IMG/VR virus record: IMGVR_UViG_3300021077_000115
Span: 110,064 to 174,063 of that record
Length of the DNA stretch: 64,000 bases
Source of the DNA: a virus
Strand: one strand, 5' to 3'
Shown here: positions 4,021 through 56,166 of the stretch, in pieces
Position numbering within the stretch: position 1 is the first letter of the stretch
Layout of the letters: each line of letters begins with the position of its first letter
Translations under genes and position numbers: made by a program
The notes under the pieces: model-generated
Told to the model about the DNA's origin: nothing
Database searches by the model: none
The model's input: only the letters and a program-made list of their open reading frames with translations

Positions 4021-4075
4021 AACATAACCTATTAATTGCCGAAAGGGGCCGCCCTTTCAGGCAGCCCCCTCAGCA

Positions 4076-7179: not shown

Positions 7180-7527
7180 GGTGGAAGTGTTCGGAATCGA
7201 ACCGAAGTCTTGCGATCCTCTCTTATTTCCATCATTCACGTGCGTAGCCACTGTATCCCCAATGGCTGAGTTCGTCAATTCGGTGGACGACCTATTCACC
7301 TGTTTGTCTCGTAAGCAACTTCGGTAACCCAAGTTACTTACCAGCCTTTGTGGTTGGCAATCCTGACCGCTACCAAGACAATCTTGCGGAGGACCGGCCG
7401 TGCTACTTATTAGGCAGCTGCGGCGTATGCATTATCATTCGCATTTAGAACGCCTAATGTTTGGGTGTATTAGGACCACCTACACGCAGGAAATATTTCA
7501 GATCCCAATCGAAAACCTTTCACTCCC
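7180..7527 (-). ncRNA. ssrA: tmRNA (ssrA)
   Basis: Minus-strand 5' end GGGAGTGAAAGGTTTTCGATTGGGATCTG resembles E. coli GGGGCUGAUUCUGGAUUCGACGGGAU. Tag frame at revcomp 7442..7407 reads GCG AAT GAT AAT GCA TAC GCC GCA GCT GCC TAA TAA = ANDNAYAAAA** (cf. ANDENYALAA). 3' end has T-arm TTCGG-TTCGATT-CCGAA, then CACTTCC-A-CC, which pairs with the 5' GGGAGTG. Confidence 0.8.
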
Positions 7528-7699
7528 ATATTTAGAAACATAAGATAGCATAAGAAATTAAGATTCGCAAGGAGCCCCAGGTAAGTACCGGAATGGCTCG
7601 GAAGCCATTCGTGGCTTTCGCCACAGCCGCGTCAGTTCAGCCGTCCGCTGGGGAACATCCTTGCTTTGGGGGCGACCACCAGGAACCTTTCGGTTCCAG

Positions 7700-7772
7700 A
7701 GCTACTGAAAGGAATTGAACCTTCAACATCTTGATTACAGGTCAAGTGCTCTGCCAATTGAGCTACAGTAGC
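7700..7772 (-). tRNA. tRNA-Thr (anticodon UGU)
   Basis: Cloverleaf read by eye: acceptor GCTACTG/CAGTAGC, D-arm GCTC-AATTGGCA-GAGC, anticodon arm CTTGA-CCTGTAA-TCAAG (C33 unusual), 5-nt variable loop, T-arm GAAGG-TTCAATT-CCTTT, discriminator T, CCA not encoded. Confidence 0.75.
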
Positions 7773-11620: not shown

Positions 11621-11874
11621 GACTTTTCATCCTTTCGACATCTCGTGCACTCCGGCAAATTGCAGTGCTCTCCAACTTGCGTCCCAACTCGGTAATGATG
11701 ACCGTTCGTCAAGAACCCAACCCCATCGCCGGGACTGATTGAGAACATGTCACTTGCAAAGCTATGCGCCGAGACAGGCCGCCCCGTAGCATCCAACTCA
11801 TGGTACACAACCTTGTTAGATTGGTGCATAACCAAAACCATCTCAACAACTCTGTTATCAACTTGAACTTTCAT
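11617..11874 (-). CDS. hypothetical protein
   Basis: 85-aa ORF. Confidence 0.4.
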   Translation of the reverse strand: MKVQVDNRVVEMVLVMHQSNKVVYHELDATGRPVSAHSFASDMFSISPGDGVGFLTNGHHYRVGTQVGEHCNLPECTRCRKDEKS

Positions 11875-13071: not shown

Positions 13072-13152
13072 ATCAAAACCTTTCTTATGACTTGCCTCAT
13101 CAGATGCGAGGTTGTCACCCTTCGCATGACCGCCTTGCGGCGGTTTCGGCTT

Positions 13153-13977
13153 TTATTTAGAAAGCTCCTCAATTCGAATGCGAATTATCTCGCGATCTAG
13201 CTCAAGAGATTTGATCTCAATCGAGCCTGTTCCTTCATTGTTAGCTCCCGGCCACTGGCCATCTCTCTGAATTAGCGCCGGAAGATCAAGGGATATCGCC
13301 TGCTTCCCAACCCTAATGCACCCATCAACCAGATCTTTCCTAGCTGCGAAAGCTAAGGCTGACTTTAGGGCGTTGTTGCAATCATTGTATCTTGAACGAT
13401 GACGCCGGTAATAGGCAACTGACTGTTCCCAGCTGAAGCGCTCATACTCTTTGTTGTAACTTCCGCCGGAGATTACATTCCTGTTTGGGTTCGGATCATC
13501 GCTGCGATGATATGTGACTTGCTTTCCCTTCGGTTTCCCGAATTCGATTACCGGCCGTCCGCGTTCATCAACAACTCCTTCATTTCTGGAAATGTAGTCG
13601 GAAGCAATGATATGGTTGGCCGTGAACGCATGCTTGCTAAATGCCGGCGAGCACTCAGTACACTCGCACAGTGATAACAGATTGATGTGAGCCGCCGCAT
13701 CTTCTTCTGTTGTTCCAAACGGAGGCCTTAGCCATCTGAGATACCAATCAATTGAGTCCTTGCGACCAAGCGCTCGGTACTCACCGAGCCCATGAACTCT
13801 AAAGAGAAAAACTAACTCAGACATTCGCTGCCATAGCCTCTCGGGTACGCAACTCCACAGCACGATCTTCCACCAAATCACGTACGCGGCGAATGCTATC
13901 GCCGTCAAATGATAGCAGAAGTATCCGAATGGCCTGAAGCGTATTGTCAGAGTCCGCTCCGCCTCGAAGCTGAACAA
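13153..13977 (-). CDS. hypothetical protein
   Basis: 274-aa ORF; N-terminal part hydrophobic, start uncertain. Confidence 0.4.
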   Translation of the reverse strand: MFSFEAERTLTIRFRPFGYFCYHLTAIAFAAYVIWWKIVLWSCVPERLWQRMSELVFLFRVHGLGEYRALGRKDSIDWYLRWLRPPFGTTEEDAAAHINLLSLCECTECSPAFSKHAFTANHIIASDYISRNEGVVDERGRPVIEFGKPKGKQVTYHRSDDPNPNRNVISGGSYNKEYERFSWEQSVAYYRRHRSRYNDCNNALKSALAFAARKDLVDGCIRVGKQAISLDLPALIQRDGQWPGANNEGTGSIEIKSLELDREIIRIRIEELSK

Positions 13978-15784: not shown

Positions 15785-16012
15785 TTACCCTGCCTTGCGA
15801 AGAGCTGGCAGATCGGAGTTGTGAAGAACTTCGTACAGACTCATGAAGCTGTTCGCCTCATGGCTTGGCAATTCATCCCAAGCTACAGCCATCGAGATTG
15901 GCCTGCCAGCGTCGTCAGTTGTATCAACCCATATCCCTGCTTCAGAGATGTTGATGGTCTTGCCATCAAACTCAACTGTAACCTCTTTGATATTGTTTGC
16001 CATAGTACACAT
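15785..16012 (-). CDS. hypothetical protein
   Basis: 75 aa; terminator plus GGCATTTAAGAG cassette lies upstream. Confidence 0.45.
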   Translation of the reverse strand: MCTMANNIKEVTVEFDGKTINISEAGIWVDTTDDAGRPISMAVAWDELPSHEANSFMSLYEVLHNSDLPALRKAG

Positions 16013-16040
16013 TTTCCTTTAGAGATAGCGAATTGCCATC

Positions 16041-16085
16041 TCTTAAATGCCGAAAGCCCACGCCCTGTTACAGGAGTGAGCTATC
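16041..16085 (-). promoter_or_regulatory. terminator hairpin + CTTTYGGCATTTAAGAG cassette (copy 1 of 7)
   Basis: Minus strand reads hairpin-CUUUCGGCAUUUAAGAG, then a 6-codon mini-ORF, then the RBS of gene 15785..16012. Confidence 0.45.
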
Positions 16086-16089
16086 AGCT

Positions 16090-16533
16090 TTAGGTATGTA
16101 TCTGACCGTCCAATTCTACTCCGTGGTAAACACCACTACGTTCGAAGTAGAAATGATCTACATTCCATTTCAGTTGCCTAGCTAGCTCAGTAGCTGACGG
16201 ACAACCATGATCATCACCCTCATGCTGCCTGGCATATCGCATAAGCGCTGCCAGTACAAGAGCTGGTAGGCGTCCCGTTCCACCACATGCCTTGCACGAA
16301 CCTTTACTTGACAATGACAACCCAATGCCCATGCAGCAAGGACAGGCTACCTTCATACACCGAGCTACGATATGATCTCGATACTCTGCCCATCGCCAAT
16401 CATCCATCGTCAAAACCCGGCTTCCAATGTACGGTACCCAACCAGCTTCTGTTGGTTGATGAGTAATTACGTTACCCTCTCTCAACTTTACATCCTCTGG
16501 CTTCTCAGCTAACGGAATTGTATTCTCATTCAT
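16090..16533 (-). CDS. hypothetical protein with CxxCxGxG zinc-finger motif
   Basis: Start MNENTIPL sits 8 nt after TTTAAGGAG; CPCC...CKACGGTGR motif. Confidence 0.5.
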   Translation of the reverse strand: MNENTIPLAEKPEDVKLREGNVITHQPTEAGWVPYIGSRVLTMDDWRWAEYRDHIVARCMKVACPCCMGIGLSLSSKGSCKACGGTGRLPALVLAALMRYARQHEGDDHGCPSATELARQLKWNVDHFYFERSGVYHGVELDGQIHT

Positions 16534-16541
16534 TGCTAACT

Positions 16542-16581
16542 CCTTAAATGCCAAAAGCTCTCGCCCATCTAAGAGCGAGAG
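16542..16581 (-). promoter_or_regulatory. terminator hairpin + CTTTTGGCATTTAAGGAG cassette (copy 2)
   Basis: Perfect hairpin CTCTCGC-loop-GCGAGAG adjacent to the motif; the motif doubles as the SD for gene 16090..16533. Confidence 0.45.
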
Positions 16582-16687
16582 CCTTCGGTTTGACAATCAC
16601 GGAATGTTCATAAGAACATATACCGCGAATGCTACCAGGAACCCTGCAGCACCTATCAGTTCCTGAATTCTGCCGCTGTTGTTACCG

Positions 16688-17098
16688 CTATTTGCTGCAA
16701 AGCGGACATGCTGGCGTGACGTACTGAACATTGGGCACCTTTGAATAATGCTTGGCTGGATTGAATTCGCGTGCTTTCGCCGTACTGAACAGCCCACCAC
16801 TCGGTGACCCAACCGGGCCATCGGCAACGAGATCTGAACTCTGCGCCGAGCTTTCGGAATCTGCATCAGCATGACGTTTGTGAGCTTTGCCTGTTATTGG
16901 AGCCCTGCCAGTGATTGCTACGGTGGCAAGACCCAATGCGTTGTTTGTCATGACGTTGGCATTCGGCGCATCATAGTTAACATTGATTGCCGAGTCTTCG
17001 GTTGTACGCAGAATGGGTGGGCTGTTGTTCACGGCGATTCCTGTTATGAATACAGCCAAGCCTAGAACCAAACTTGCGATTGCGACGATCTTGTTCAT
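16688..17098 (-). CDS. membrane-anchored protein
   Basis: N-terminal TM helix, preceded by TTTACCAAAAAAGAAAGAAG initiation motif. Confidence 0.45.
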   Translation of the reverse strand: MNKIVAIASLVLGLAVFITGIAVNNSPPILRTTEDSAINVNYDAPNANVMTNNALGLATVAITGRAPITGKAHKRHADADSESSAQSSDLVADGPVGSPSGGLFSTAKAREFNPAKHYSKVPNVQYVTPACPLCSK

Positions 17099-17143
17099 GG
17101 TGTTTCTTCTTTCTTTTTTGGTAAAGTGACAGAGTTAGATAAA

Positions 17144-17362
17144 TCAAGGAAGAGCAACGAACGTTAGAATGAATGAGCTGATTGTTATGACTGCCAACCA
17201 GCCAGTACCAATACCCATCCAATGGAAGTTCCATGCGCACCAGCAAAAGACCTGCCGGAATACGATTGCGTTGATACATGCTGCGATGAATACGCCAACC
17301 ATTCCCAGAAGCCACTTGCCAGGAACTCCGAGAACCTTGAACGGTAGTAGAAATAGTGTCAT
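17144..17362 (-). CDS. small two-TM membrane protein (holin-like topology)
   Basis: 72 aa, two hydrophobic helices; GGAGGAAAGACC-ATG RBS. Confidence 0.4.
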   Translation of the reverse strand: MTLFLLPFKVLGVPGKWLLGMVGVFIAACINAIVFRQVFCWCAWNFHWMGIGTGWLAVITISSFILTFVALP

Positions 17363-17403
17363 GGTCTTTCCTCCAGAATTTTAAGAGGTCAATTTTACCT
17401 CTT

Positions 17404-17442
17404 CTTAAATCCCGAAAGCTCAGCTCCAACTAAGGAGCCGAG
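17404..17442 (-). promoter_or_regulatory. terminator hairpin + CTTTCGGGATTTAAGAAG cassette (copy 3)
   Basis: Same cassette architecture. Confidence 0.4.
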
Positions 17443-17651
17443 CCGGGATGATTTGGCCTTCTCGATAAGGCACTTCACCTTGTCACCATTACAGTGAGCT
17501 ATCCTTTACCAGAAGAAAGGATTGTTTAATGCCCACATGCCCTGATGCAAGCACAGATTACTACGCACCAGAATACGAACTTCAGCAGCTTGACGAAACC
17601 ACTCTCGCCAGGTTCAGGTTCGAGATCAACAATGAACCTTGCCATCGCTGA

Positions 17652-18206
17652 CTACGCTGCCTTCGTCGTCTTCATTGCCTGCGCTGACTCGCCATCCACA
17701 ATGCTCATTGCGAATTGCAGAGCTTCCAACTCAGCAGCCTCAAGCTCCTTGGCTTCGGTCTCACGAGCCTTGAGAATCTGCTCGTTGATCCGAAAATGGA
17801 CTGACATATACCATTCGACGATTTCACCGATTGCTCGGACATGACCGTCACGGCAGTTGATACGAATCGAACCAATTGCCCTGTAGTTGCCCTTCTTGCT
17901 GTTGGTGCGATCCTTGTTCAGAATCCAAAGCACCGTGCCAGCTTTCTTCGCTGCCGCTTCGTGATTCCCCAGCAACGAGAGCTGAACCGTAGCTTCCAAC
18001 CCCATGGCAACGTTGCCAGCAATCCGCAACGATGTTCCACGGAAGGCCGACCTGCCATCGCTGGTCACTTCATTCTCGCACCACTTGAGCGATAGACCAG
18101 CTTGCGCCATGTCTTCACTGCCAACCTTGCGCCCACGAAGATCAATCATTGTTGATTCGGGAAGCTCAGGGCGATTGTAGGATTTGCGTGAATTGTAGTT
18201 TGACAT
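17652..18206 (-). CDS. hypothetical protein
   Basis: 184-aa ORF. Confidence 0.5.
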   Translation of the reverse strand: MSNYNSRKSYNRPELPESTMIDLRGRKVGSEDMAQAGLSLKWCENEVTSDGRSAFRGTSLRIAGNVAMGLEATVQLSLLGNHEAAAKKAGTVLWILNKDRTNSKKGNYRAIGSIRINCRDGHVRAIGEIVEWYMSVHFRINEQILKARETEAKELEAAELEALQFAMSIVDGESAQAMKTTKAA

Positions 18207-18331
18207 GATGATGTCTCCAATCGTTTACTTGATTTTACCAAAGAAGGTAGAAAGTTTATTGAACAACGATAGTGATAAGTGCGTTCGACTAGCGGCATGA
18301 GAACCGTTGATCACGTACTGTATGAATCCTC

Positions 18332-18706
18332 TCAATACAACCCAGCTCGAACTAGGCGAGCAATCGCCGCCATTTGGCGGGCTCGATACAGAGCGACCGC
18401 GCTGGGGTGTAGGCTACAGCCGCGAGGTTGGCCCGGGTGAGGATCTTTCCACCAGGGATGCGCGTGCGTCCCTGTTCTCCGCTGGATTGCCCTCGCCCGA
18501 CGACAGCCTGGCCTATTGGGATTTGCGGCATCGCGAGCCGCGCGTATGTCTGACACTGAGTAGGTAGTCATTGGTTCGCTTTCAGAAACCCGTATGGTCT
18601 CTCGTACGTCAGTGATCCTCAATGAGGTTTTACCTACAGTCAGGAAAACCTCTCCGCTGCCGTTGGTTTCAATTGTGAAATTGCCTACTTGAGCTATGTG
18701 TCTCAT
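18332..18706 (-). CDS. hypothetical protein
   Basis: 124-aa ORF. Confidence 0.35.
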   Translation of the reverse strand: MRHIAQVGNFTIETNGSGEVFLTVGKTSLRITDVRETIRVSESEPMTTYSVSDIRAARDAANPNRPGCRRARAIQRRTGTHAHPWWKDPHPGQPRGCSLHPSAVALYRARQMAAIARLVRAGLY

Positions 18707-18716
18707 TGCAAACTCC

Positions 18717-18941
18717 TTATGCAGCCAACTTGATCGTATCTTCGGTTGGAGTGATGTGATGCTTGTGCCCGTCCCAATGCGTTAGCACCAGTCCGTTATT
18801 TACAGCATCAGTTATGAACTTCACAAATGTTTCAGATGGAAATGTTTCCGTAACATACTCGCCGTTCGTTAGCGGCAATGTTATGTACATTCCATCATCC
18901 TTCATGATGACTAGCCCAACTCGATTGATATAGCTTTTCAT
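18717..18941 (-). CDS. hypothetical protein
   Basis: Starts at MKSYINR; cassette copy 4 lies upstream. Confidence 0.4.
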   Translation of the reverse strand: MKSYINRVGLVIMKDDGMYITLPLTNGEYVTETFPSETFVKFITDAVNNGLVLTHWDGHKHHITPTEDTIKLAA

Positions 18942-18973
18942 TTTCAAAATCTCCAAGAGTTGCGAAATGCAGC

Positions 18974-19018
18974 CTCTTAAATGCCAAAAGATCGCGCCTC
19001 TCCATAAGGAACGATCTT
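18974..19018 (-). promoter_or_regulatory. terminator hairpin + CTTTTGGCATTTAAGAG cassette (copy 4)
   Basis: AGATCG-loop-CGATCT hairpin adjacent to the motif. Confidence 0.45.
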
Positions 19019-19037
19019 CTGGTCTTAGAGTTTCCCC

Positions 19038-19232
19038 TCAATCTTTCTTGACCCTCAGTACACCATCAACTCCTTTGATGAGAATTACGGATGGTGTTGG
19101 TTTCGAACTGACGCGGATACGTGCAACTGATTTGCGAAGATTGGCAGTCTGTTCTAGTAGACTTGCCGCTCGTTGTAGCGAATCGCTTGCACGTTCGCAT
19201 CGTTCATGTGCTGTCTTCGTTTTGTCTGACAT
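19038..19232 (-). CDS. hypothetical protein
   Basis: 64-aa ORF. Confidence 0.35.
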   Translation of the reverse strand: MSDKTKTAHERCERASDSLQRAASLLEQTANLRKSVARIRVSSKPTPSVILIKGVDGVLRVKKD

Positions 19233-19299
19233 GATTCCCCCTTTGGGTTGTGCTTAGGGATACGTGGATAAGCTGTCCATGAAAAGCTCTTGCAACTCA

Positions 19300-19716
19300 T
19301 CAACATCTGATCCCCAAATGTCGTTTTGTATCAGCTCTGACCAAGTCAGCGTACTGATCGATGTTCTTGTAGTGATGAGCATTAGTGATCTGAGTCACTG
19401 CGTCATCAAGATCACGCTTACTTGCGAACTGAGCGATCATACCTTCGAAGTGGCATCGCTCAGCATTCAGAATCGTTGTTCCTTCGATTGCGAGATGGTA
19501 ACAACCGAACAGCTCAGGATTGGTTGTATGGAACTTCCATTGGGCTTCGTGCCTCACAACCTCGAATGCCCATGGTGTGCCTTCTTGGCAATCCTTCACC
19601 AGCCCCTTGCGCTGCATTTGATTGCAGATATTTTTTGGAACCGATGAGGCGTATGCACTGAACATCACATCTAACATTAGAAGCGCCAGTAGCACCGGCA
19701 AAACAATCTTTCGCAT
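19300..19716 (-). CDS. secreted protein
   Basis: Signal peptide MRKIVLPVLLALLMLDVMFSAYA; conserved C-rich leader element lies upstream. Confidence 0.5.
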   Translation of the reverse strand: MRKIVLPVLLALLMLDVMFSAYASSVPKNICNQMQRKGLVKDCQEGTPWAFEVVRHEAQWKFHTTNPELFGCYHLAIEGTTILNAERCHFEGMIAQFASKRDLDDAVTQITNAHHYKNIDQYADLVRADTKRHLGIRC

Positions 19717-19754
19717 ACATCCCTCCTGGATAGGGGTTTAAGCGTTGGGGTTCT

Positions 19755-19967
19755 CTAGTGAGGTACCCGGGAATTTTCTGGGGGACTTGAAGGTGTTTCC
19801 TTTTCGTCTTTGAGAAGCCTCTCTCGGAACTTGGCCATGGCCACAAGAGCACATGCATGTGCCATGTTCTCTGAAAGTGCTGGATTCTCTGCCATGATTG
19901 CGTCAACTACGGATTGAATTGAGTAGCTGGCAGCTAAGGGCTGCCCTGCAAGCTTTGCTTGATACAT
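19755..19967 (-). CDS. hypothetical protein
   Basis: 70-aa ORF. Confidence 0.35.
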   Translation of the reverse strand: MYQAKLAGQPLAASYSIQSVVDAIMAENPALSENMAHACALVAMAKFRERLLKDEKETPSSPPENSRVPH

Positions 19968-19985
19968 GTTACGCTCCCGTCACAT

Positions 19986-20426
19986 TCATGTGACGATATG
20001 TAGCGCTCGAAGAATTCTTGCGAGCAGCGTGTTGTGAGTAAGAACAACAGAAGATTGACTAGTGACGTGCTTGCAATAAATACGTTTCATTGCCTGCTCT
20101 TCCAACTGTTGCTCAATCGTGCTTTCTTCCACCCAACCCATCTCGCCCTTCGTGCCCAGTAAGCCTAGGCTCAACAACATGGAGCGACAGATCAGTAGGT
20201 CCGCCCAGATGCCCATGCGCCTGTCTAGGGTCACACGTTGACGGCTCAACGAGAATCGAATCTGCCTTGAGATGCGCGCTAGCTCTTGCTCAAGTCGAAA
20301 AATCTCGTCGCACAATGCAACCCGGCTGCGGTGCGTAGCGTCAAACCATGAAAGAGTCTTTTCAGGTTTTGGACATGGAATTGTTGGACAGCGAGATTCG
20401 TCTCGCACGTTGATGGATGATTGCAT
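19986..20426 (-). CDS. hypothetical protein
   Basis: GGGAGGAAATC-ATG RBS; conserved C-rich leader element lies upstream. Confidence 0.5.
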   Translation of the reverse strand: MQSSINVRDESRCPTIPCPKPEKTLSWFDATHRSRVALCDEIFRLEQELARISRQIRFSLSRQRVTLDRRMGIWADLLICRSMLLSLGLLGTKGEMGWVEESTIEQQLEEQAMKRIYCKHVTSQSSVVLTHNTLLARILRALHIVT

Positions 20427-20600
20427 GATTTCCTCCCTGTGTTTTTACCTACATCTACCCTCATAGTGGATATGGGGTTTAAGGTTTGGGGTGCCCGCTG
20501 TAGGTACCTGGGATCTACGGGGCAAAAAACGAAACTTTTCCTTTCGTTCACCCACACTCAGCCCTAGCACCGGAGTTTCTATCTCCGGCCCAGCACTCTC

Positions 20601-20637
20601 TCTTAAATGCCAAAAGCCCATCCAATCAAGGAGTGGG
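20601..20637 (-). promoter_or_regulatory. terminator hairpin + CTTTTGGCATTTAAGAG cassette (copy 5)
   Basis: Same architecture. Confidence 0.4.
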
Positions 20638-20884
20638 CGAGTTAGGTTTGACTAAAACAATCTGGTGAGTGCGTCCAATCAAGAGCAGTGGCCCATGCCT
20701 CAACTACCTTTGGTAAAAACCAACTGTTCAGTATTGACAGCCGCACGTGATTGTGTTTGTTCGACAAACGTTAGTGGATGAAGAGCCGGATATCTGTTCA
20801 GTATCACAACACGCTAAGTGTTTGATATCTGGTAGATTGAAGTTCGCATAACACACGTTATGTAAACTCCGGCCACTCAGTCTT

Positions 20885-20925
20885 CTTAAATGCCAAAAGC
20901 CCACACTCCGAAAAGTGCAGGCTCA
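20885..20925 (-). promoter_or_regulatory. terminator hairpin + CTTTTGGCATTTAAGAAG cassette (copy 6)
   Basis: Same architecture. Confidence 0.4.
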
Positions 20926-20953
20926 GGCATCACTCAACTCAGGACGAAAAATT

Positions 20954-22114
20954 TCAGGCGCTCTCAACTGCTTTATTTTGCTCGTTGCAATACCAAATGA
21001 TGTCAGCCTCTGTCACACCCGCGTCAACAAGCTGGCGTTCGTACTCGGCATGAACCTCGCCTAGGTTCCGATAAGTTGCACAGTAAGCCCACTTGTAATC
21101 GCGCTCAGCCGTTGTTTCGTTCTCGCCATTCTTGATGGCAATCTGCTTGGCAGCTTTACCAGCCGCATGCGCTTGCCCGCGCTTGACTTCGCGCTCGGTC
21201 TTCTGGCCAACCGTCTTGGCTGTGCCGTTGGTTCCAACGAAACGGCGCGCTGCCTTACGCTCACGCCATGCTACCAATCGTTCGGCATCATCAGGAAAGG
21301 CCGGCAAACCTGATAGAGTCTTGTAGTGAGCCTTGCGTGACTCTCCAAGCCCAGCACGGAATGGAGGAGTTGTAGGATCAGGTAGGTGGATTGCTCGAAT
21401 CCACGGCATCTCGGTTGCGCCATTCGTACCCAAGGCCCATGGATCAACCGCGCAAGCTGGAATGCCAACTGCTGCGCCGGCTTCGCCGCTCATCATAACG
21501 GCTGCAATGTCCTTCCGAAGGTCACGGCCAGCTGGGCCGTGCAAGTTCTTGTCAACCGTGTAGGCACTCATGTGCGTGGTTGCGACTGCGAAGGCTGCGA
21601 GATACACAGCCCGGTATGCATCAGGGTCACTGACCGGCGTGAGCCAAGACTTGTCCAGCTTCGGGAGATAGACAGTCAGCCCATGGATCGGAGCTTCGTG
21701 CTCACCCGGTTCTTCGACCGCATCATCAGGCTCATCGGCCGCATCATCCAGCTCGTTGAGCGGAAGGGGCAACTGCTCCGGTTCATCGTCCGGATGTGAT
21801 TCAAGTACGGTGTTGAATGCTGTCCAGATTGGCTCGTAGCCGAGCATTCGAACCTGCTCCTGTAGGCTGTTGTGAGCAGCAAACTGTGTTCCCGCTACTG
21901 CTGAAACATTTCGGCCGAGCAGTTCGGTCGAGCAGATAAACCGGCGCGGGATGACAACTCCGCTTGCATCGGTTGCGCGTTGCACAGTCAAAGCTAAGTG
22001 TGCCGATGTGAGTTCCTTGGTAACTTCGGCCTCTGTGTCGGCGATTAGAGCTAAAGTCTCTGGGGAAAGAGCTATGTTTTGGTTGACGTTCTGGTGAGCG
22101 AACGGTCTTGCCAT
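20954..22114 (-). CDS. hypothetical protein (386 aa, higher GC than surroundings)
   Basis: Long ORF, acidic central linker, composition noticeably more GC-rich than neighbours. Confidence 0.55.
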   Translation of the reverse strand: MARPFAHQNVNQNIALSPETLALIADTEAEVTKELTSAHLALTVQRATDASGVVIPRRFICSTELLGRNVSAVAGTQFAAHNSLQEQVRMLGYEPIWTAFNTVLESHPDDEPEQLPLPLNELDDAADEPDDAVEEPGEHEAPIHGLTVYLPKLDKSWLTPVSDPDAYRAVYLAAFAVATTHMSAYTVDKNLHGPAGRDLRKDIAAVMMSGEAGAAVGIPACAVDPWALGTNGATEMPWIRAIHLPDPTTPPFRAGLGESRKAHYKTLSGLPAFPDDAERLVAWRERKAARRFVGTNGTAKTVGQKTEREVKRGQAHAAGKAAKQIAIKNGENETTAERDYKWAYCATYRNLGEVHAEYERQLVDAGVTEADIIWYCNEQNKAVESA

Positions 22115-22148
22115 GTGAGTTCTCCTGAGCGAATGGGCGAGTGAGGCC

Positions 22149-22187
22149 CTTTAAACGCCAAAAGCCCCACGGCTTGTGACCGTGGGG
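22149..22187 (-). promoter_or_regulatory. terminator hairpin + CTTTTGGCGTTTAAAG cassette (copy 7)
   Basis: CCCCACGG-loop-CCGTGGGG hairpin adjacent to the motif. Confidence 0.4.
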
Positions 22188-22204
22188 TTCCTAGCGTGCG
22201 TTAC

Positions 22205-22660: not shown

Positions 22661-23150
22661 GGTGTTTTCTCCTAACGAAACGTGATGTTATTGAGCGAAA
22701 CGATTCAGGTAATTAGTAAAAACGAATCAAACGAACCGTCGTCTCACCAATTCAAATCCCTCGGAATCTCCGGTCGAAGAATCGGATATAGTGTCTCCGG
22801 CTGGCTAGGCGGATTGTAGGGGGTATGGGCTGGTTGGGTCAGGCGGCCGGCCGGGCCACCTCAAAAGGTACATCTGGCAGATTCAGCTCTGGCAGATTCA
22901 GATATGCACGCCCTGGCAGGCTTTTTAGTTACGCGCCGCCAATGTTCAAGCATACCACACCTGATTCATGTAGATTCTCATCCCCTAGTCTATCTTCTAT
23001 CTTCTTGTTCTGGTTTATGATAGAGTTCATTTCTATCCCTTCTATTCTTTATTCGGCCTCTTGGCTGATTTTTTCTAGGCTGAATTGGGATAGTTTGATT
23101 ATGACGATGGTGTGATTTATCTCACCTATTTTTACCAAAGAGTAAATATT
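22661..23150. promoter_or_regulatory. divergent-transcription switch region (candidate divergent promoters/origin)
   Basis: About 490 bp without credible ORFs between the minus and plus blocks. Direct repeat CTGGCAGATTCAG x2 (22873-22905), AT-rich pyrimidine tract 22960-23060, ends with TTTTTACCAAAGAGTAAATATTTT motif. Confidence 0.4.
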
Positions 23151-40374: not shown

Positions 40375-41058
40375 TTGAGCGGACCGTCAAAAGCGGTCCG
40401 TTCGCTTTTAAGTGTTGACGAATTTGGCGTGTTTAGGTACAGTGGCCTGTTCATTGCTATTTTATGGGTTTGTATGTCTGAATTATTACCTGGCAATGCT
40501 AAATTAGTAAAAATGGAATTTGCATTTATAGATGCGATAGTTCACATGTCGCAATCTTGGATGGACACATTCAAGAAGATAGCTTCTGATTGTGGTATTC
40601 CTTATTTGGAGAACCGTCAAGGTAGAAGTAAACACGGTCCTCCAATTATAGAGAAGTGGAAAGGCGGTTCAATTTCAAGACCCGGCGAACTCTTGCCGGG
40701 AGAAACTGAAAATTCACCATCTCACTGTTTTGATGTACCAAAAGCACTTGATAAACTAAAGGGGCAAAGATTAAGGGCGATGTATTTCCATGGTCCAAGT
40801 CTTTGCCTTGTATTGGTTACAGATTACGATTCAATTGGTATTCGATCAACAACGTTGAGAAGTGGCATTATCCCTTTGATGACTGAGCTTTATCAAAGGA
40901 AACGACTGAGGGATTCAATCTGTGTTCGCGCCTACGAGATCTGGCAAGAGAATGGATGTCCAGAAGGCGCAGATGAGCAGAATTGGATTGAAGCTGAGCA
41001 ACAGCTTGATCCACAACCAAGCTTTGATGAGTGGTGTATCAAAGAGAATTTGCAATGA
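40375..41058 (+). CDS. protein with C-terminal DUF2934-like motif
   Basis: C-terminus RAYEIWQENGCPEGADEQNWIEAEQQL. Confidence 0.45.
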   Translation: MSGPSKAVRSLLSVDEFGVFRYSGLFIAILWVCMSELLPGNAKLVKMEFAFIDAIVHMSQSWMDTFKKIASDCGIPYLENRQGRSKHGPPIIEKWKGGSISRPGELLPGETENSPSHCFDVPKALDKLKGQRLRAMYFHGPSLCLVLVTDYDSIGIRSTTLRSGIIPLMTELYQRKRLRDSICVRAYEIWQENGCPEGADEQNWIEAEQQLDPQPSFDEWCIKENLQ

Positions 41059-42465: not shown

Positions 42466-42963
42466 TTGACTCTGCTGGCTAATCTTGCTAGATTCTCATC
42501 AGGCCATGGTGACGCGGGAGAGCCGCGTACGGTGTTTTTTCGGGCCTGCTTGACCATTTAGCAGCCTGTTGTGTCACTTCATGAAACAGCCTAGCTAGTA
42601 GGCCGGTGAAATATCCGGCCTATTGACTTTAAGTTCAAAATAGTAATTGATGAGCACGGATCTGTAAGGCTTGTTGCGGCAGATATTCGTATTTCACGCA
42701 CCACATCAGAAGATGGCCAGTACAGAGTATATGATAATGTCGTTACCCTAACAGAACGTGGACAAGAGGATCATGATAAACTAGTCAAGGCTGGATTGGA
42801 GAAAATCCAAAATGGTTTTGACTGGAACGTTAATCTGCGAACAACCATGCTGTTTTTCTAGAAATAGATTCTTTCCAGTTCCTCGGGATCAGGTAAAAGA
42901 AACTGTTCCGGGTTACGCCGGAGACCCTCCTTAATAGTTGATATATTGTATTGAGGAGTTTTT

Positions 42964-45493: not shown

Positions 45494-45718
45494 ATGACTA
45501 CAGAAAAAAAGTATGACAAACCATTATTGACACTAAACTGTGCTGATCATAAGTGGATAGTCCACGAGGGTCATTGGGTATCAGATAATGGAGAAATGAT
45601 ACTGATGACTGATGGAAATCCATCTCGTCAGATAGTTGGAAGTGGTAGAGTTGTGTTTGCTGTGCATTTGCTAGATATGTATCTAGCTATGGAAAAAGAG
45701 CTAAGAGCGCTAAAATGA
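45494..45718 (+). CDS. hypothetical protein
   Basis: 74-aa ORF. Confidence 0.4.
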   Translation: MTTEKKYDKPLLTLNCADHKWIVHEGHWVSDNGEMILMTDGNPSRQIVGSGRVVFAVHLLDMYLAMEKELRALK

Positions 45719-46626
45719 TTACTCGCGATGGAAAGCTTGAGATTTTTGAAAACTTCATTGTAGATGCTAGTCTACCAAAACATTTTGGAAAGAAACGCTC
45801 AGAGCTTTCCAAAATGGTAAATGCTTGGGTTGATTATCACAGAGATAGCGACAGCGAGTCCAAGAATGATGGTGATGTTGGGTTTATCCAGGCATGGAGA
45901 GAACCCGAAGAAATGGATATTCCTGGTCTTGTTAAGACCGAAGGTGACGGATTTATAATTGGGAATAGAAAATATCGCAATAAGAAGGTTTGGTCTTTCT
46001 TATTATTCCCGATATTATGGATGGTTGGATTATTCAGAAAAAAGAAGATGGCAAAGATTGAAGCAGCAAGAATGTCCGTAAAGGACTTCTTCGCCTCAAT
46101 AAAAAACTCTGCCAGAGAGCTTGAGATTGTTGCCGAGCGCGCTGCCGGATACGAGAAAGCCTTGATCAACGCCACCAAAGCCGGACAGGTTGCCCTTAAG
46201 GAGCGTCTGTTGAGTGGCTTGGATGCGCACCGCTCTGAGACCCAACTATTTGCTTCAGATCATAAGAAATACGTCACTGAAGAAGATGTGGTGAAATTTG
46301 TCAAGCAAGCCAAACGTGGATTGCGGCTTGATTGGATTAAGAACTTTACTAGAATTATTCCTAATGAAGTAATTTTTACCAAAGTAAGTCTTGATGAATT
46401 GACTGTGTTTGATAACTACGTTGTCATGCACTACGATCCAAACAAGAATTCTTGGGCGGAAACTCAAGAGGAAGCAAATAGGAGAAGAGACCCTATATTG
46501 TTTGGTGTAATTCTTGGTAGTAGAAAACTGTATTTCGTTGGTGATTGGGTTGATGATCTATGCGACCTGACACTTGAGCAGATAGCCGCTGAGCTTGGGC
46601 AGCAAGCCATAAAGGAAATTGTATAA
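45715..46626 (+). CDS. hypothetical protein
   Basis: 303 aa; internal TM segment. Confidence 0.5.
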   Translation: MITRDGKLEIFENFIVDASLPKHFGKKRSELSKMVNAWVDYHRDSDSESKNDGDVGFIQAWREPEEMDIPGLVKTEGDGFIIGNRKYRNKKVWSFLLFPILWMVGLFRKKKMAKIEAARMSVKDFFASIKNSARELEIVAERAAGYEKALINATKAGQVALKERLLSGLDAHRSETQLFASDHKKYVTEEDVVKFVKQAKRGLRLDWIKNFTRIIPNEVIFTKVSLDELTVFDNYVVMHYDPNKNSWAETQEEANRRRDPILFGVILGSRKLYFVGDWVDDLCDLTLEQIAAELGQQAIKEIV

Positions 46627-50190: not shown

Positions 50191-50603
50191 CAAGTTACTC
50201 CAACTTCTTTGAGATGCTGGACGCTATTGAAGCGAAGATGCAAGACCCACGTTGTAAGGAGGCTGGACTCACCCCTTACACAGGGGAGCCTCTACTAACG
50301 AGTATGGATCTTGGGTGGATCGTTGCGCTTCCCCTAAGCGAACGGGACGAAACATTCCAGTTCAGTGTGAGTCTACGTCAGATAAAGATTGACCGGCAAG
50401 ATCCTAGATGGGCCGATGCTTATGCCAGGCTCCAATCATTTACGACCCACTTCATTACATGTCCAAAGCATGGGGTGGTTAAAGGCATCCCGATACACAA
50501 GCTTCAAGGCAAGAAAGAGGGATCTGAGACGCTGGTATGCATACCTTGTGTGGCTGAGCGCATGGTGAATCCTGTTCGAACTTCAGCCAATCTCTCGATA
50601 TGA
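50169..50603 (+). CDS. hypothetical protein between tnpA and tnpB (C..H...C..C)
   Basis: 144-aa ORF. Confidence 0.4.
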   Translation: MVRKEPMTSYSNFFEMLDAIEAKMQDPRCKEAGLTPYTGEPLLTSMDLGWIVALPLSERDETFQFSVSLRQIKIDRQDPRWADAYARLQSFTTHFITCPKHGVVKGIPIHKLQGKKEGSETLVCIPCVAERMVNPVRTSANLSI

Positions 50604-52027
50604 AGAAATGTCGGTTCTTCATGCTGCATCCTGAGTGCAACCCTGGGAAGATTCAATCCCTGGAAGCTCTTCACGTCGAGTACATAGCTTATGTCCGGAT
50701 CTGCGTTCAGACGATGCTCAAAGCCCATAGGCTGACTTTGCCCCGCTCGGAGAAGCAGGACTTCTTCCCCAGGGCTGAGAAGCTTACGTCTCAGATTGAG
50801 AAAAACGCCCGCGACCATGCCATCCAGATTGTGAGCACTTGGGCTAAGTCGGTTTATGCCAGGAAGATCAAGACTTTCATCAGGTTATCTTTCAAAGAGG
50901 GGAACTTTGACGAGGACTTCTGTAAGCAGCTTTACACGGTGGGTAAGTACTTGATTCATGAGCCGAAGGAAACCGTGTCCCAGGAAGCAATTGATCTGTA
51001 TTGGTCTTGGCTCTCTGACCCAGAAGTAGTGGGGAACCCGCCTTCCATATCCAGTCGGATTCCAATGAGGATGTCGGAGAACACCTGCTCATTGGAAGAC
51101 CCAGAAGAGGCTACCCACGCGGATCTTTGGCTCAAGATCTCAACTTTGATTTCTCGGAAGCTTGCTTGGCTACCACTGGTTGGGAACCCATACGTCAAGA
51201 AGTCATCTGACGTAAGTAAGGGAATCCACGCTAGAAAAGACCGAAAGGGCCGTTGGCGGTTCGAAGCCGTTGATACCAAAGAGTGGTTGGTCTGCGAGGC
51301 CGAACCTGACTTACCCAGGATTGGAGTCGATGTAGGACTAAACGTGGTAGCGGCTACTTCGAGCGGACACGTGTTTGGGGCCTACCTAAAACCCAAGTTC
51401 AACAGGCTCTACGACAAGGTCAGGGAAGTCAGGGCGAACCGCCAAAGGCAGGATCTCAAGGAGAACAGTCCTAGGCTAGACCGACTAGAATCACGCCTCT
51501 CTGGCTTGACCAAGAGCTTCACGGGACGGGTATCCAATGAACTGATCCGAACGTACTCTGAGTCCGTCTTCGTCTTAGAAGACCTAGATCTTCGTGGTTG
51601 TCGTGGGCAAAAACGCTTCTGTTACAGGGAATTAGCTCATGCCCTTGAATCAAAGGCTCCAACTGAAAAGGTGAATCCGGCCTACAGTTCTCAGACATGC
51701 CCTTCGTGTGGGCATGTCTCTAGATACAATCGGGCTGGAATAGATTTCATCTGTCGCCAGTGCGGCAGGATTTCACATGCCGACGTGGTAGGAGGGATCA
51801 ATTTGCTCGGACGTTCCGAGAGCAAACAGATTGGCCTCGATGATCATCCGTCGGAAGTGAAGGGAGTGCTTGTGAGGCTATACTGGTCTAGGAGGAATCC
51901 GGATCAGGACTGTCCACAAGACTTCTTGAATAAATACGCGCCATTACCGTATGGCCGAAGGCTTACTACCAGGGGACTCTCTCGAAAGAGAAGCACTGGC
52001 ATAGCTTTTAATCAGGTAGCTGCTTGA
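50600..52027 (+). CDS. tnpB: TnpB (OrfB_IS605/RuvC-like RNA-guided nuclease family)
   Basis: RuvC-I IGVDVGLN, RuvC-II VFVLEDLDL, zinc finger CPSCGH...CRQCG, RuvC-III HADVVGGINLL. Confidence 0.8.
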   Translation: MKKCRFFMLHPECNPGKIQSLEALHVEYIAYVRICVQTMLKAHRLTLPRSEKQDFFPRAEKLTSQIEKNARDHAIQIVSTWAKSVYARKIKTFIRLSFKEGNFDEDFCKQLYTVGKYLIHEPKETVSQEAIDLYWSWLSDPEVVGNPPSISSRIPMRMSENTCSLEDPEEATHADLWLKISTLISRKLAWLPLVGNPYVKKSSDVSKGIHARKDRKGRWRFEAVDTKEWLVCEAEPDLPRIGVDVGLNVVAATSSGHVFGAYLKPKFNRLYDKVREVRANRQRQDLKENSPRLDRLESRLSGLTKSFTGRVSNELIRTYSESVFVLEDLDLRGCRGQKRFCYRELAHALESKAPTEKVNPAYSSQTCPSCGHVSRYNRAGIDFICRQCGRISHADVVGGINLLGRSESKQIGLDDHPSEVKGVLVRLYWSRRNPDQDCPQDFLNKYAPLPYGRRLTTRGLSRKRSTGIAFNQVAA

Positions 52028-55287: not shown

Positions 55288-56166
55288 ATGCCAACAAGAA
55301 TCATTGCATTAGGTACAGGCTCTGCCTTCACAATGAACAACTACCAAACTAACTTTGTCATCAAAAGAAATGGCAAGTATCTTTTGGTAGATTGTGGTGG
55401 CGATGTCAGATTTAGCCTTAGAGATCAGGGCCTGTCTGCCAAGGATATAGATGCTGTCTATATTTCACATGCTCACGCAGATCATGTGGGCGGCATGGAG
55501 TTCTTGGCATTCACACGCTACTTTACAAAGAGATCAATGGAAAATGCTAGGGCCCTCGCGCGAACTGTCGATCCTGAGCATTCCCCAGAGCCACTTCAAT
55601 TACCAGTGCTATTCTGTGAGCATGGGATGATTCGAACACTTTGGGATCACTCATTACGAGGAGGTCTCGAAGGACTTGAGGGAATCGACGCCAACATCGA
55701 CACCTATTTCAGGGTACATCCAGTGCCAAAAAACGGATCGTTCGAGTGGGAGGGCTTGAAGTTCGATATCGTTCAAAGCCTTCATGTCTCTGCTAAATAT
55801 AGTATTGTTGATTCATTCGGGCTGATGTTTACTGATGATATTGGGTATCGAATATTCATCACTACAGATGTTCAGTTCGCCCCAGAGACATCTATGAAAG
55901 CCTATTACAAAGAGGCTGATGTCATAATTCATGACTGCGAAACAGGATTCAAAAGCGGAGTTCACGCCCATTACGATCAGCTAAGGACATTGGATAATAG
56001 CATTAAGAATAAGATGCTTTTGGTTCACTACCAAGACAATGTCTTGGAAGATTGGAATGCGTGGGTGGACAAGGCCAACCAGGACGGCTTCGACGGATTC
56101 GTCAAGCCTGGGCCGATTTGGTCTGATGAACCACCTGACGTAATCGCAGCAACAACGAATGTTTGA
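55288..56166 (+). CDS. metallo-beta-lactamase-fold hydrolase (RNase Z / cyclic-nucleotide phosphodiesterase-like)
   Basis: ISHAHADHVGG (HxHxDH), downstream ITTDVQ and IIHDCE, then HAHYD metal-ligand-like residues. Confidence 0.6.
   Translation: MPTRIIALGTGSAFTMNNYQTNFVIKRNGKYLLVDCGGDVRFSLRDQGLSAKDIDAVYISHAHADHVGGMEFLAFTRYFTKRSMENARALARTVDPEHSPEPLQLPVLFCEHGMIRTLWDHSLRGGLEGLEGIDANIDTYFRVHPVPKNGSFEWEGLKFDIVQSLHVSAKYSIVDSFGLMFTDDIGYRIFITTDVQFAPETSMKAYYKEADVIIHDCETGFKSGVHAHYDQLRTLDNSIKNKMLLVHYQDNVLEDWNAWVDKANQDGFDGFVKPGPIWSDEPPDVIAATTNV

Follow-up and report, generated by a model that had tools for sequence, protein, structure and literature searches.

A hairpin module repeated in a leftward gene block

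The window analysed here, a 64,000-nt stretch of a phage genome of ~392 kb, carries a leftward gene block punctuated by copies of a short module: a GC-rich hairpin whose sequence differs from copy to copy, joined directly (zero spacing in every copy) to a conserved CUUUUGGCAUUUAAGAG tail of 16–17 nt. Seven copies had been noted before, and all were confirmed at those places on the minus strand (exact match spans 16040-16056, 16541-16557, 17402-17418, 18974-18990, 20600-20616, 20883-20899 and 22148-22164). A search with CTTTYGGCATTTAAGAG allowing up to three mismatches gave eight matches against 0.43 expected, exclusively on the minus strand, a count that none of 100 shuffles reached; the additional eighth copy, with a degraded tail, lies at 4029-4045. 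A covariance model trained on 50 copies and run over the window plus 9.3 kb past its right end returned only the same eight copies within the window and none in the 9.3 kb beyond. The copies, together with two possible reduced versions in a rightward gene block, are as follows.

22148..22196, minus strand: copy 7, hairpin and tail CTTTTGGCGTTTAAAGG; 36.9 bits
20883..20929, minus strand: copy 6, UUCG-loop hairpin and tail CTTTTGGCATTTAAGAA; z-score –5.1; 44.9 bits
20600..20638, minus strand: copy 5, hairpin and tail CTTTTGGCATTTAAGAG; 34.9 bits
18974..19022, minus strand: copy 4, hairpin and tail CTTTTGGCATTTAAGAG; 38.5 bits
17402..17448, minus strand: copy 3, hairpin and tail CTTTCGGGATTTAAGAA; –27.6 kcal/mol, z-score –5.4; 30.6 bits
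16541..16588, minus strand: copy 2, 16-bp hairpin and tail CTTTTGGCATTTAAGGA; –26.1 kcal/mol, z-score –6.1; 43.3 bits
16040..16088, minus strand: copy 1, hairpin and tail CTTTCGGCATTTAAGAG; 40.2 bits
4029..4075, minus strand: eighth copy, strong hairpin and degraded tail CTTTCGGCAATTAATAG; –31.5 kcal/mol, z-score –5.9; 34.6 bits
40376..40415, plus strand: possible reduced version in the rightward block, 12-pair hairpin and then CTTTTAAGTG, without the CTTTTGGCA half
42596..42636, plus strand: possible reduced version in the rightward block, 11-pair hairpin and then ACTTTAAGTT

Copy 7 is flanked by a 151-aa gene (22660-22205) and a 386-aa gene (22114-20954), copy 6 is placed 3' of the latter, and copy 4 follows a 64-aa gene (19232-19038). 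Copy 1 is the last ahead of a conserved, tightly packed operon starting at 16012, and the eighth copy stands 8 nt ahead of an ATG at 4020. Several copies have orthologues in metagenomic relatives (loci numbered with the prefix L): copy 7 in L006, L010, L157 and L175; copy 4 at L006 13641, L008 12428 and L010 12213, where the loop CTTATGGAGAG is kept while the stems covary; and copy 1 at L010 14324 and L176 3832, in front of the same gene family.

Position relative to genes

The orientation of the module is that of the genes in every copy, and it always lies 3' of a stop codon. That codon is typically 33–68 nt upstream of the tail, so that the hairpin usually begins within ~25 nt of the stop. 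Downstream spacing is much looser, the tail-to-start-codon distance ranging from 2 to 182 nt; at copy 5 (20616) the first well-supported gene starts ~170 nt downstream, correcting the shorter spacing given in the earlier note. Roughly one to five genes lie in each unit between copies, and the near-monocistronic expression that had been proposed for this block was therefore overstated.

In about 7–8 of the 57 copies (~13%) the tail is itself the Shine-Dalgarno sequence (SD) of the next gene, reading UAAGGAG(G) 6–8 nt ahead of ATG (copy 2 at 16557, L008 13139, L159, L168 7886, both L187 copies and L186 12621). The case first noticed, copy 2, holds up, its AAGGAG standing 7 nt ahead of the ATG (16533) of a 147-aa gene. 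Such double use indicates that the tail is transcribed. It also suggested a module for translation initiation or ribosome standby, in which the UUUAAGRRG tail, like the leader of T7 gene 10, would mainly bind ribosomes in the manner of an SD, but that reading is very improbable, given the variable distance to the start codon, the small share of copies in which the tail serves as SD, the presence of a separate SD in most downstream genes, and the fact that the best-conserved positions are UUUAAG rather than the GGAGG core. It leaves both the hairpin and CUUUUGGC unexplained. The 6-codon mini-ORF described after copy 1 is indeed present there but has no counterpart at the orthologues in L010 and L176, and is thus probably fortuitous.

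Structure and conservation of hairpin and tail

The window copies have folding energies of about –13 to –31.5 kcal/mol with z-scores of –1.9 to –6.1, the weakest hairpin of the set being that of copy 5 (–13.2 kcal/mol, z-score –1.9); stems comprise 10–19 pairs (mean ~16), with a mean energy of –26 kcal/mol. The hairpins are of RNA type, as seen in a folding preference for the gene strand, which is more stable than the reverse complement in 28 of 28 copies (at copy 7, –27.5 vs. –22.5 kcal/mol), in common G·U pairs (69 of 449 predicted pairs), and in enrichment of GNRA and UUCG loops (tetraloops make up 21 of 46 loops, with 13 GNRA and two UNCG).

The stem usually extends through CUUUUGGC(A), leaving UUUAAGRR single-stranded. 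In 46 of 51 copies the 5' flank is paired with tail positions 2–9; random flanks already give a baseline of 47%, which limits how far this count supports the lower stem. The lower-stem variants GGCG, GGUG and GGGA are compensated upstream by CGC, CACC and UCCC (copy 3 has the GGGA/UCCC combination), and the upper stem shows 4–6 pair types per position. In a model-based alignment the covariation score was 0.271 vs. 0.167 for shuffled data (0 of 500 shuffles reached it) and peaked at slide 0; in a fixed-register alignment just 59% of cells pair.

Most copies have GGG at the G-rich base of the stem, after which come a C that never varies and a run of TTTT or TTTC. The tail holds ~24 bits of information across 16 nt, falling sharply after position 17–18; position 9 is a purine without exception, and GGCAUUUAAG is nearly invariant among copies, a constancy that termination does not explain. 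The U-tract has four U, down to two or three in the CCTTGGG and CAATTGG variants, and is itself paired in the predicted fold, which a plain terminator would not need. Its shortness also bears on the earlier description of a reused cassette of the leftward block with an intrinsic terminator: the reuse and the terminator-like hairpin stand, but a strict terminator rule, which asks for five or more T in 8, calls none of the sites, because the T-run is just TTTT or TTTC. No hairpin-free copy was found by motif searches or the covariance model. Of the 11 TTTAAG sites on the sense strand of the window, 8 lie directly beside a strong hairpin, compared with 0–4 of 1–32 sites for control hexamers; two of these eight are in the other, rightward gene block and are without the CTTTTGGCA half.

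Could the tail be a promoter?

It had been proposed that the hairpin is fused to a promoter, so that it would stop upstream transcription while the 16-nt CTTTTGGCATTTAAGA would be recognized by a phage-encoded or phage-modified RNA polymerase, initiation near G15 giving insulated, self-expressing cassettes. The information content of the tail and its sharp edge fit a promoter in size, since promoters of single-subunit polymerases are about as long. T7 and SP6 promoters have a similar layout of specific block, AT-rich stretch and purine start, here a conserved block of ~17 nt with AT-rich TTTAA before a purine-rich start (GAG, GAA or GGA). The copies are clustered in one region, as in a temporal promoter class, and the 27-nt gap between copy 1 and the conserved operon shows no other promoter. 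There is also a precedent in the promoter-early stem-loops (PeSLs) of T4-type phages, terminator-promoter cassettes beside small genes of unknown function (PMC2839356).

Several observations nevertheless speak against this proposal. Every copy has its hairpin, none heads the block, and the reversed genes of L006 and L008 are not followed by a copy; T7-type promoters, by comparison, occur without hairpins. Sigma-70 –10 and –35 elements were not found in the copies, and with no conservation past tail position 18 there is no –10 behind the –35-like TTGGCA; by eye, sigma-54 GG-N10-GC spacing was inconsistent between copies. Where the tail is an SD, a start at G15 would leave that SD at the very start of the mRNA. 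On the sense RNA, tail positions 1–9 pair with the flanking sequence upstream, where variants are compensated, a constraint at the RNA level, and the two hairpin-UUUAAG sites of the rightward block do without the CTTTTGGCA half altogether. Finally, for the phage-specific polymerase or sigma factor considered in the earlier note, no gene was found among the 135 ORFs scanned in these 64 kb, nor was a T7-type polymerase gene seen there; ORFs of the window do, however, match a PHROG family with the annotation 'Srd anti-sigma factor' and endonuclease VII, functions familiar from T4. A promoter read by a polymerase that the phage encodes is not the reading we favour, and we regard it as unlikely.

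Could the module be a processing site?

Alternatively, a long polycistronic transcript might be cut within the single-stranded AUUUAAG or within the long stem, by RNase E, RNase III or a phage endoribonuclease. The upstream mRNA would then keep a fully paired 3' hairpin as protection, and the downstream mRNA would start with a 5' leader that is rich in purines and resembles an SD. The stems are longer than those of typical terminators, with the lower stem paired up to position 8–9, and the invariable purine at position 9 matches the preference for a purine at –2. Downstream mRNAs include the tail, and processing would express downstream genes without a promoter at each unit. The ORF matching the Srd family is pertinent, as T4 Srd stimulates RNase E. 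RNase III sites lie between the early genes of T7, and early mRNA of SP82 is likewise processed; in both, repeated hairpins punctuate a polycistronic early transcript and leave a protective 3' hairpin upstream, and SP82 processing leaves a purine-rich stabiliser at the 5' end of the downstream RNA. T7 RNase III sites differ, however, in that their two stems enclose an internal loop and a U-run is missing; the module here would be a candidate site. RNase E and RNase III need little sequence information at their sites, so that cutting would explain neither a 16-mer that hardly varies nor the conserved U-run directly behind the G-rich base of the stem, and no endoribonuclease was identified near the copies. 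We consider processing quite unlikely.

Relatives and homology breaks

The earlier note had suggested looking for the motif beyond the window, and the module was indeed found in related phages, at 2–9 copies per locus among metagenomic relatives whose 386-aa neighbour protein shares 41–82% identity. The copies are always inside a hypervariable block of small genes without known function: from one relative to the next the genes between copies change strongly, whereas synteny is kept in the flanks. Homology breaks between relatives coincide with the 3' ends of copies. Homology with L175 and L006 breaks off at 20882, a single base beyond the copy 6 tail, whose last base is 20883, and homology with L175, L157 and L176 restarts at 20592-20594, just past copy 5. 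In a tandem pair in L006 (9950), the second hairpin is nearly identical to a hairpin 1.2 kb downstream (11178).

Such breakpoints, and the near duplication in L006, raise the idea of a recombination site for cassette exchange, either as a folded single-stranded DNA hairpin like an integron attC, conserved in its lower stem and crossing over at its 3' end, or more simply as a short conserved linker for homologous recombination, as proposed for PeSLs. Integron attC sites have variable hairpins with conserved complementary ends and follow each cassette in a hypervariable array of single orientation. The array here has a comparable shape, with one gene orientation, variable and bulged hairpins, a conserved complementary lower stem formed by (U)GCCnAAG with CUUUUGGC, cassette boundaries at the 3' end of the site, and hypervariable genes between syntenic flanks. 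On the other hand, the attC core sites, which are RYYYAAC and GTTRRRY, are absent and other core sequences occupy their place; no tyrosine recombinase or integron integrase was found in the window or in the relatives' flanks; several genes (one to five rather than about one) lie between sites; and the enrichment of GNRA and UUCG tetraloops, with the U-run, indicates RNA rather than DNA. Breakpoints at a conserved sequence are expected anyway, because homology is detectable only there. We find such a role hard to credit.

Comparison with phage terminators

The closest parallels are the conserved terminator motif of phiKZ and, in layout, the PeSLs of T4. In phiKZ, 61 experimentally mapped terminators share a hairpin and a conserved TTAT-containing tail, with the motif BCCYCCCCHWWDGGGRRGGBYTTATKYYGT, which its authors read as acting at the RNA level (PMC10914365); phage 201phi2-1 has the same pattern (PMC11512511). 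As here, these are giant phages with many copies of a stem-loop and a conserved, moderately U-rich tail. The tails are unrelated, however (TTAT in phiKZ vs. CUUUUGGCAUUUAAG here), and the hairpin sequence is conserved in phiKZ, whereas here conservation is limited to the tail and the lower 3' strand. The phiKZ sites, moreover, are genome-wide with mapped 3' ends, in a phage transcribed by its own RNA polymerases, while ours are clustered in one hypervariable block.

PeSLs resemble the module in that they are short and composite, lie between genes, include a stem-loop terminator or attenuator and are repeated among small genes of unknown function in hyperplastic regions, where indels between close relatives are bounded by the elements. 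Their defining feature is a strong sigma-70-like –35/–10 promoter with an AT-rich upstream region, with ~100 bp conserved (PMC2839356, PMC4122927), and their stem-loop is usually between or over the –35/–10 boxes; the module here has neither box, its hairpin is strictly upstream of the conserved 16-mer, and the conserved span is only ~20 nt.

A probable leaky terminator at cassette boundaries

The module is most likely a leaky transcription terminator and neither a promoter nor a translation signal. More specifically, we favour, with moderate confidence, an intrinsic (factor-independent) terminator or attenuator that is specific to this lineage, carries a conserved tail and is reused where cassettes meet. 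It would act as a single unit at the RNA level: transcription of the leftward block would produce the long GC-rich hairpin of ~16 pairs on average, its upper stem free to vary, with the conserved CUUUUGGC(A) as lower 3' strand before the single-stranded UUUAAGRR tail. We infer that RNA polymerase would stop here, and any account of the efficiency, of the polymerase involved and of the reason for the constraint on GGCAUUUAAG is equally conditional. Termination would probably be partial; seven efficient serial terminators would silence the operon downstream of copy 1 (16056), where no other promoter is evident, so that either the terminators leak or transcription is restarted. RNA ending at the module would have its 3' end locked in an extended stem, whereas read-through RNA would carry the tail, which in some copies has been recruited as the SD of the next gene.

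In a clade of uncultured megaphages, the module would thus recur at the 3' side of gene cassettes, within a region that is hypervariable and probably early and that holds small genes without known function. Because one short sequence recurs beside every cassette, it also marks the junctions at which the cassettes of relatives differ.

Copies in the window

With up to three mismatches allowed, CTTTYGGCATTTAAGAG matched the 64-kb window eight times, where 0.43 matches were expected and none of 100 shuffles reached eight. All eight matches lie on the minus strand; they comprise the seven copies of the earlier note, every one recovered on that strand between 15.9 and 22.4 kb, and an eighth whose tail is degraded (copies are named below by the window coordinate of the tail). 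In every window copy the conserved 17-mer begins at the base immediately 3' of a hairpin, the sequence of which varies from copy to copy; energies from RNA folding ran from -13 to -31 kcal/mol (z-scores between -1.9 and -6.1). Within the window, a covariance model made from 50 copies returned the same eight copies only, and position-pattern, hairpin and covariance-model scans of the window plus the 9.3 kb past its right end found no additional or degenerate ones. A plus-strand hairpin at 13 kb may be a terminator of antisense transcription, or may be there by chance.

Hairpin-tail features outside the main series
4029-4045, minus strand: eighth copy, tail degraded to CAATTAATAG
13143-13160, plus strand: antisense look-alike, a hairpin then GTTTCGGCTTTTATTTAG, loosely tail-like, where the gene at 13153 ends
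40376-40415, rightward block: possible reduced site without the CTTTTGGCA half
42596-42636, rightward block: possible reduced site without the CTTTTGGCA half

Anatomy of the hairpin and tail

Across 28 copies, information content was high at positions 1-16, CTTTTGGCATTTAAGA, and zero past position 18, through position 42; position 1 directly follows G-rich sequence (GGG in most copies), and the conserved tail includes TTTAAGAG. The U-tract after the stem, CUUUUGGCAUUU, holds four U and then three (7 U in 12 nt), too few for a terminator rule that asks for 5 or more T in 8, and is reduced to 2-3 U in a few variant copies. The gene strand folded more stably than its reverse complement in 28 of 28 copies, in which G.U made up 15% of predicted pairs, and among 46 family copies the stem averaged 16 pairs and -26 kcal/mol, with tetraloops in 21 of the 46 loops (13 GNRA, 2 UNCG); the fold energetics, G.U pairs and tetraloops are RNA features. 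When copies were anchored on the tail, the upper stem showed 4-6 kinds of standard pair per position. A model-based alignment gave a covariation score of 0.271 vs. 0.167 in shuffles (0 of 500 reached it), with its maximum at the true register; 59% of its cells pair, because stem registers differ among copies. No Rfam family's gathering score was reached by the element, the window yielding just a tmRNA and a tRNA.

The stem usually extends into the conserved block, positions 1-8 pairing with a (U)GCCnAAG-like upstream flank in 46 of 51 copies; random flanks pair in this way 47% of the time, so that the enrichment is real over a high baseline. Compensating variants back the lower-stem pairing (GGCG, GGUG and GGGA facing upstream CGC, CACC and UCCC). 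What is left single-stranded is UUUAAGRR, and a strong hairpin adjoins eight of the 11 sense-strand TTTAAG sites of the window, the two sites of the rightward block among them, vs. 0-4 of 1-32 for control hexamers.

A tail that is a promoter for a phage polymerase, fused to the hairpin, would account for a block of 24 bits over 16 nt and for expression of the downstream units, but we think it unlikely: no hairpin-free copy was found in the window scans or the relatives, positions 1-9 pair at the RNA level, the tail overlaps the Shine-Dalgarno (SD) sequence in some copies, the two rightward sites lack the upstream half, and no RNA polymerase gene was found among the 135 ORFs scanned, in 64 kb of a ~392-kb genome. 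The RNase E signature has a purine at -2. The tail fits an RNase E-like R-N|W-U signature (PMC5222698) and the stems are unusually long, as an RNA processing site might have them; this reading, which we consider distinctly improbable, leaves the high information content unexplained.

Placement relative to genes

All copies share the orientation of the gene that they follow, the stop codon of which typically lies 33-68 nt before the tail; given a hairpin of ~35-45 nt, the hairpin usually begins no more than ~25 nt from the stop. No copy stands at the head of the leftward block, nor after the reversed genes of the metagenomic relatives L006 and L008. From one copy to the next there are roughly 1-5 genes, which does not bear out the near-monocistronic expression proposed for the block.

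Some copies, ~13%, have UAAGGAG(G) as the tail sequence 6-8 nt 5' of an ATG (copy 16557 in the window; L008 13139, L159, L168 7886, both L187 copies and L186 12621 among relatives), and there, judged by its sequence, the tail evidently serves as the ribosome-binding site. A tail that doubles in this way would be present on the downstream mRNAs. Translation initiation fails as the role of the element at large, since the distance from tail to next start codon is too variable (2-182 nt) and the conserved core is UUUAAG, not GGAGG; a pure translation module would cover a minority of copies only, and we give it very little weight. The six-codon ORF reported after the first copy (16056) is present there and missing from the orthologues of that copy.

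Sigma-70 and sigma-54 promoters were also rejected. With TTGGCA taken as a -35 box, the 51 copies show no conservation 17 nt further downstream, nor a TAnnnT at any constant offset; promoter-like sites at 12-26 kb numbered 15 vs. 18.3 expected, not above chance. TGGCAT is present, and sigma-54 promoters have GG and GC elements spaced as in TGGCAC-N5-TTGC, but the GG-N10-GC spacing is inconsistent and fails in most copies (register positions 14-15 are GC in some, such as 18990 and 22164; copies 16056, 20616 and L006 9950 have no GC there). A T4 MotA-box-like middle promoter was rejected as well, there being no -10 partner.

Relatives and distribution

Relatives were taken from contigs carrying homologues (41 to 82% identity) of the 386-aa protein encoded at 20954-22114, and from an 18-mer scan of JGI metagenomes. 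Those with sufficient flanking sequence carry 2-9 copies each, so that enrichment extends outside the window into related phages, and every copy lies on the gene strand, directly 3' of a hairpin, clustered just downstream of the divergence point. In the phage itself this point coincides with a flip of GC skew at ~22-23 kb, genes running leftward below ~22.7 kb and rightward above ~23.7 kb. Across 596 Gb of bacterial genomes the 18-mer occurred as 19 scattered singletons in unrelated taxa, with ~17 estimated by chance; in IMG/VR the exact 17-mer had 0 matches and the 15-mer, among the matches listed, gave singletons only, at noise level. The element therefore belongs to this phage clade and not to a host. 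One GC-rich metagenomic contig with an HNH gene (L156; 1,440 nt, an apparent 1,313-bp circle with the motif at both ends) was set aside as an unrelated, chance match to a generic terminator.

Among deposited phages (INPHARED) there was no DNA match to the window and no match to its 386-aa or 444-aa proteins; the PhoH and NadM-like proteins found at most 42% identity there, and window proteins ~40% at most against phage proteins, so the phage has no cultured relative. Stretches identical to the window occur in metagenome assemblies only, and a 391,957-bp contig is among those in the cluster to which the 386-aa protein belongs. We conclude that the source is an uncultured megaphage.

Gene turnover at the copies

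In the four best loci the punctuated stretch is headed by protein families 1 and 2, and the last copy is followed by a syntenic operon (families 7-12), while most genes lying between copies occur in one phage only. DNA homology of the window to the relatives L175 and L006 stops at 20882, one base beyond the last base of copy 20899, and homology to relatives restarts at 20592-20594, just beyond copy 20616. L006 has a tandem second copy whose hairpin is nearly identical to one 1.2 kb downstream. These breaks and the near-duplicate hairpin show that copies coincide with junctions of gene gain or loss. A strain variant, L003 (Logan SRR35913720), has a 67-69-nt deletion at window 20691-20757, in the window-specific segment between copies 20899 and 20616, and is otherwise 99.8-100% identical to the window over the remainder of 10.6 kb.

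The match to homology breakpoints is what a recombination site would give, whether attC-like or a PeSL-like linker, but such a site would need a recombinase, and the RNA-type features conflict with it; we hold it very improbable. The window and the flanks of relatives yielded no integrase, the one exception being a Resolvase (serine recombinase) domain in a single window ORF. In a fuller form, just as doubtful, giant phages would have an integron-like gene-cassette system, with these elements as its recombination sites and terminator activity secondary: single strands, folded and sharing a conserved lower stem, would be cut and joined at the tail 3' end, mobilising cassettes of uncharacterised genes between megaphages. 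Integron attC has the core sites RYYYAAC and GTTRRRY, an IntI tyrosine recombinase nearby and roughly a single ORF for each site. It was rejected as an identity, these core sequences being absent from the element and its units holding ~1-5 genes.

The nearest analogue by layout and setting, the T4-type PeSL (PMC2839356, PMC4122927), is likewise a stem-loop in a repeated intergenic cassette flanking small unknown genes of a hyperplastic region. Unlike PeSL, the element has no sigma-70-like -35/-10 boxes with an AT-rich upstream region, and information at positions 19-42 is ~0; with the defining sigma-70 promoter absent, it is not a member of the PeSL family.

A candidate terminator with a lineage-specific tail

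The reading that we favour, and to which we give roughly even credence on the sequence features, makes the element a candidate intrinsic terminator or attenuator, its tail being specific to the lineage. It rests on an RNA hairpin with a G-rich base followed by an invariant C and a U-run; on a place immediately behind stop codons, an orientation that is always that of the genes and a tail never without its hairpin; and on mapped precedent for conserved post-hairpin tails. In phiKZ, 61 terminators share a common hairpin and a TTAT-containing tail, the motif being CCYCCCC...GGGRRGG then YTTATKYYGT (PMC10914365), and phage 201phi2-1 likewise has a conserved post-hairpin tail (PMC11512511). The phiKZ terminator is the closest analogue in likely mechanism, but its sequence is unrelated: the hairpin of our element is variable, its tail is CTTTTGGCATTTAAG, and the phiKZ motif is not matched.

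In such a terminator the extended lower stem would hide the 3' end of the released RNA. Termination would be partial, or transcription would restart downstream, because seven sites in series would otherwise silence the conserved operon after copy 16056, for which no other promoter is visible; the SD-bearing copies, too, would need read-through RNA.

Other recurrent elements and gene content

A second motif, TTTTTACCAAAG, recurs on the gene strand of both blocks, with many sites in L006, L008 and L010. It usually lies 8-25 nt 5' of a start codon, merging into a purine-rich SD, and in L185 it directly follows a hairpin-tail copy; its reverse-complement 12-mer had 19 matches vs. 7.4 expected. The motif may serve as a leader, in translation or as a promoter-proximal element. 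A non-coding stretch that precedes the first gene of the leftward block is better conserved than adjoining coding sequence across six phages, has no covariation support (RNAalifold) and does not resemble the tail; it could be a head promoter or leader, or an origin. A third repeated element, 72-84% conserved in relatives, contains a terminator-like hairpin, AACGAAAggaaaagTTTCGTTTTTT, and overlaps a possible 41-58-aa ORF, so it may be a small gene or else a structured leader.

Other recurrent or conserved elements
23129, 26187, 27598 and 46373, plus strand: TTTTTACCAAAG sites
20719, 15043, 8202 and 3694, minus strand: TTTTTACCAAAG sites
18232, plus strand: TTTTTACCAAAG site antisense to the local gene
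~22668-22868, minus strand: ~200-nt non-coding stretch, ...TCTGCCAGATGTACCTTTTGGGGTGGCCCGGCCGGCC...CCGGAGATTCCGAGGGATTTG.ATTGGTGAGACGACGGTTCG...
~20438-20594 and ~19738-19804, minus strand: third element, cccRGGTACCt...ACCCCAAnnCTTAAACCCCTATCC..., just upstream of start codons
L006 ~11640-11760 and L186 ~13810-13850: third element in relatives

The window also encodes PhoH2, a NadM/NUDIX enzyme, Apyc1, TnpB and HNH nucleases. For one ORF the match is to PHROG 1400, with the annotation 'Srd anti-sigma factor' (E 4e-10), and for another it is to endonuclease VII; both functions are known from T4, and the matches hint at T4-like host-takeover biology. The translation-related genes listed here, with small RF-1-domain proteins encoded by relatives, suggest a ribosome-rescue theme.

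Translation-related genes
7180-7527, minus strand: one-piece tmRNA, tag peptide ANDNAYAAAA, 96 bits, inside the leftward operon
7699-7772, minus strand: tRNA-Thr(TGT), inside the leftward operon
~60318-60770: PTH2 peptidyl-tRNA hydrolase

TnpB-type and anti-defence genes lie at 45715-46626, 50600-52027 and 55288-56166 and, just past the window, at L001 12205-12810. The gene at 50600-52027 has a Pfam Cas12f1-like TNB domain, and PHROG transposase families match both TnpB-type genes; TnpB and the Resolvase-domain ORF are possibly an IS607-like pair. The anti-defence genes are Apyc1 and a 2H-phosphoesterase (2',5' RNA ligase family; faint Acb1 match only). NMT1/OmpA and ABC-transporter genes lie past the right end of the window.

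Implications

For giant phages known from metagenomes alone, mapped regulatory signals are nearly absent. The variable hairpin with CUUUUGGCAUUUAAG is a clade-wide punctuation mark, recognisable by sequence, that sets off units of transcription or cassettes within a hypervariable region, probably one of host takeover, and it can be used for annotating unit boundaries, finding relatives and choosing small uncharacterised genes. The near-invariance of the tail, GGCAUUUAAG, implies a specific reader, which could be a nuclease, a recombinase or an RNA polymerase whose needs in termination or initiation are unusual. Should the tail be part of a termination signal, it would extend the phiKZ finding of sequence-specific terminators in giant phages; were it a promoter or recombination site instead, it would define a new class of that kind.
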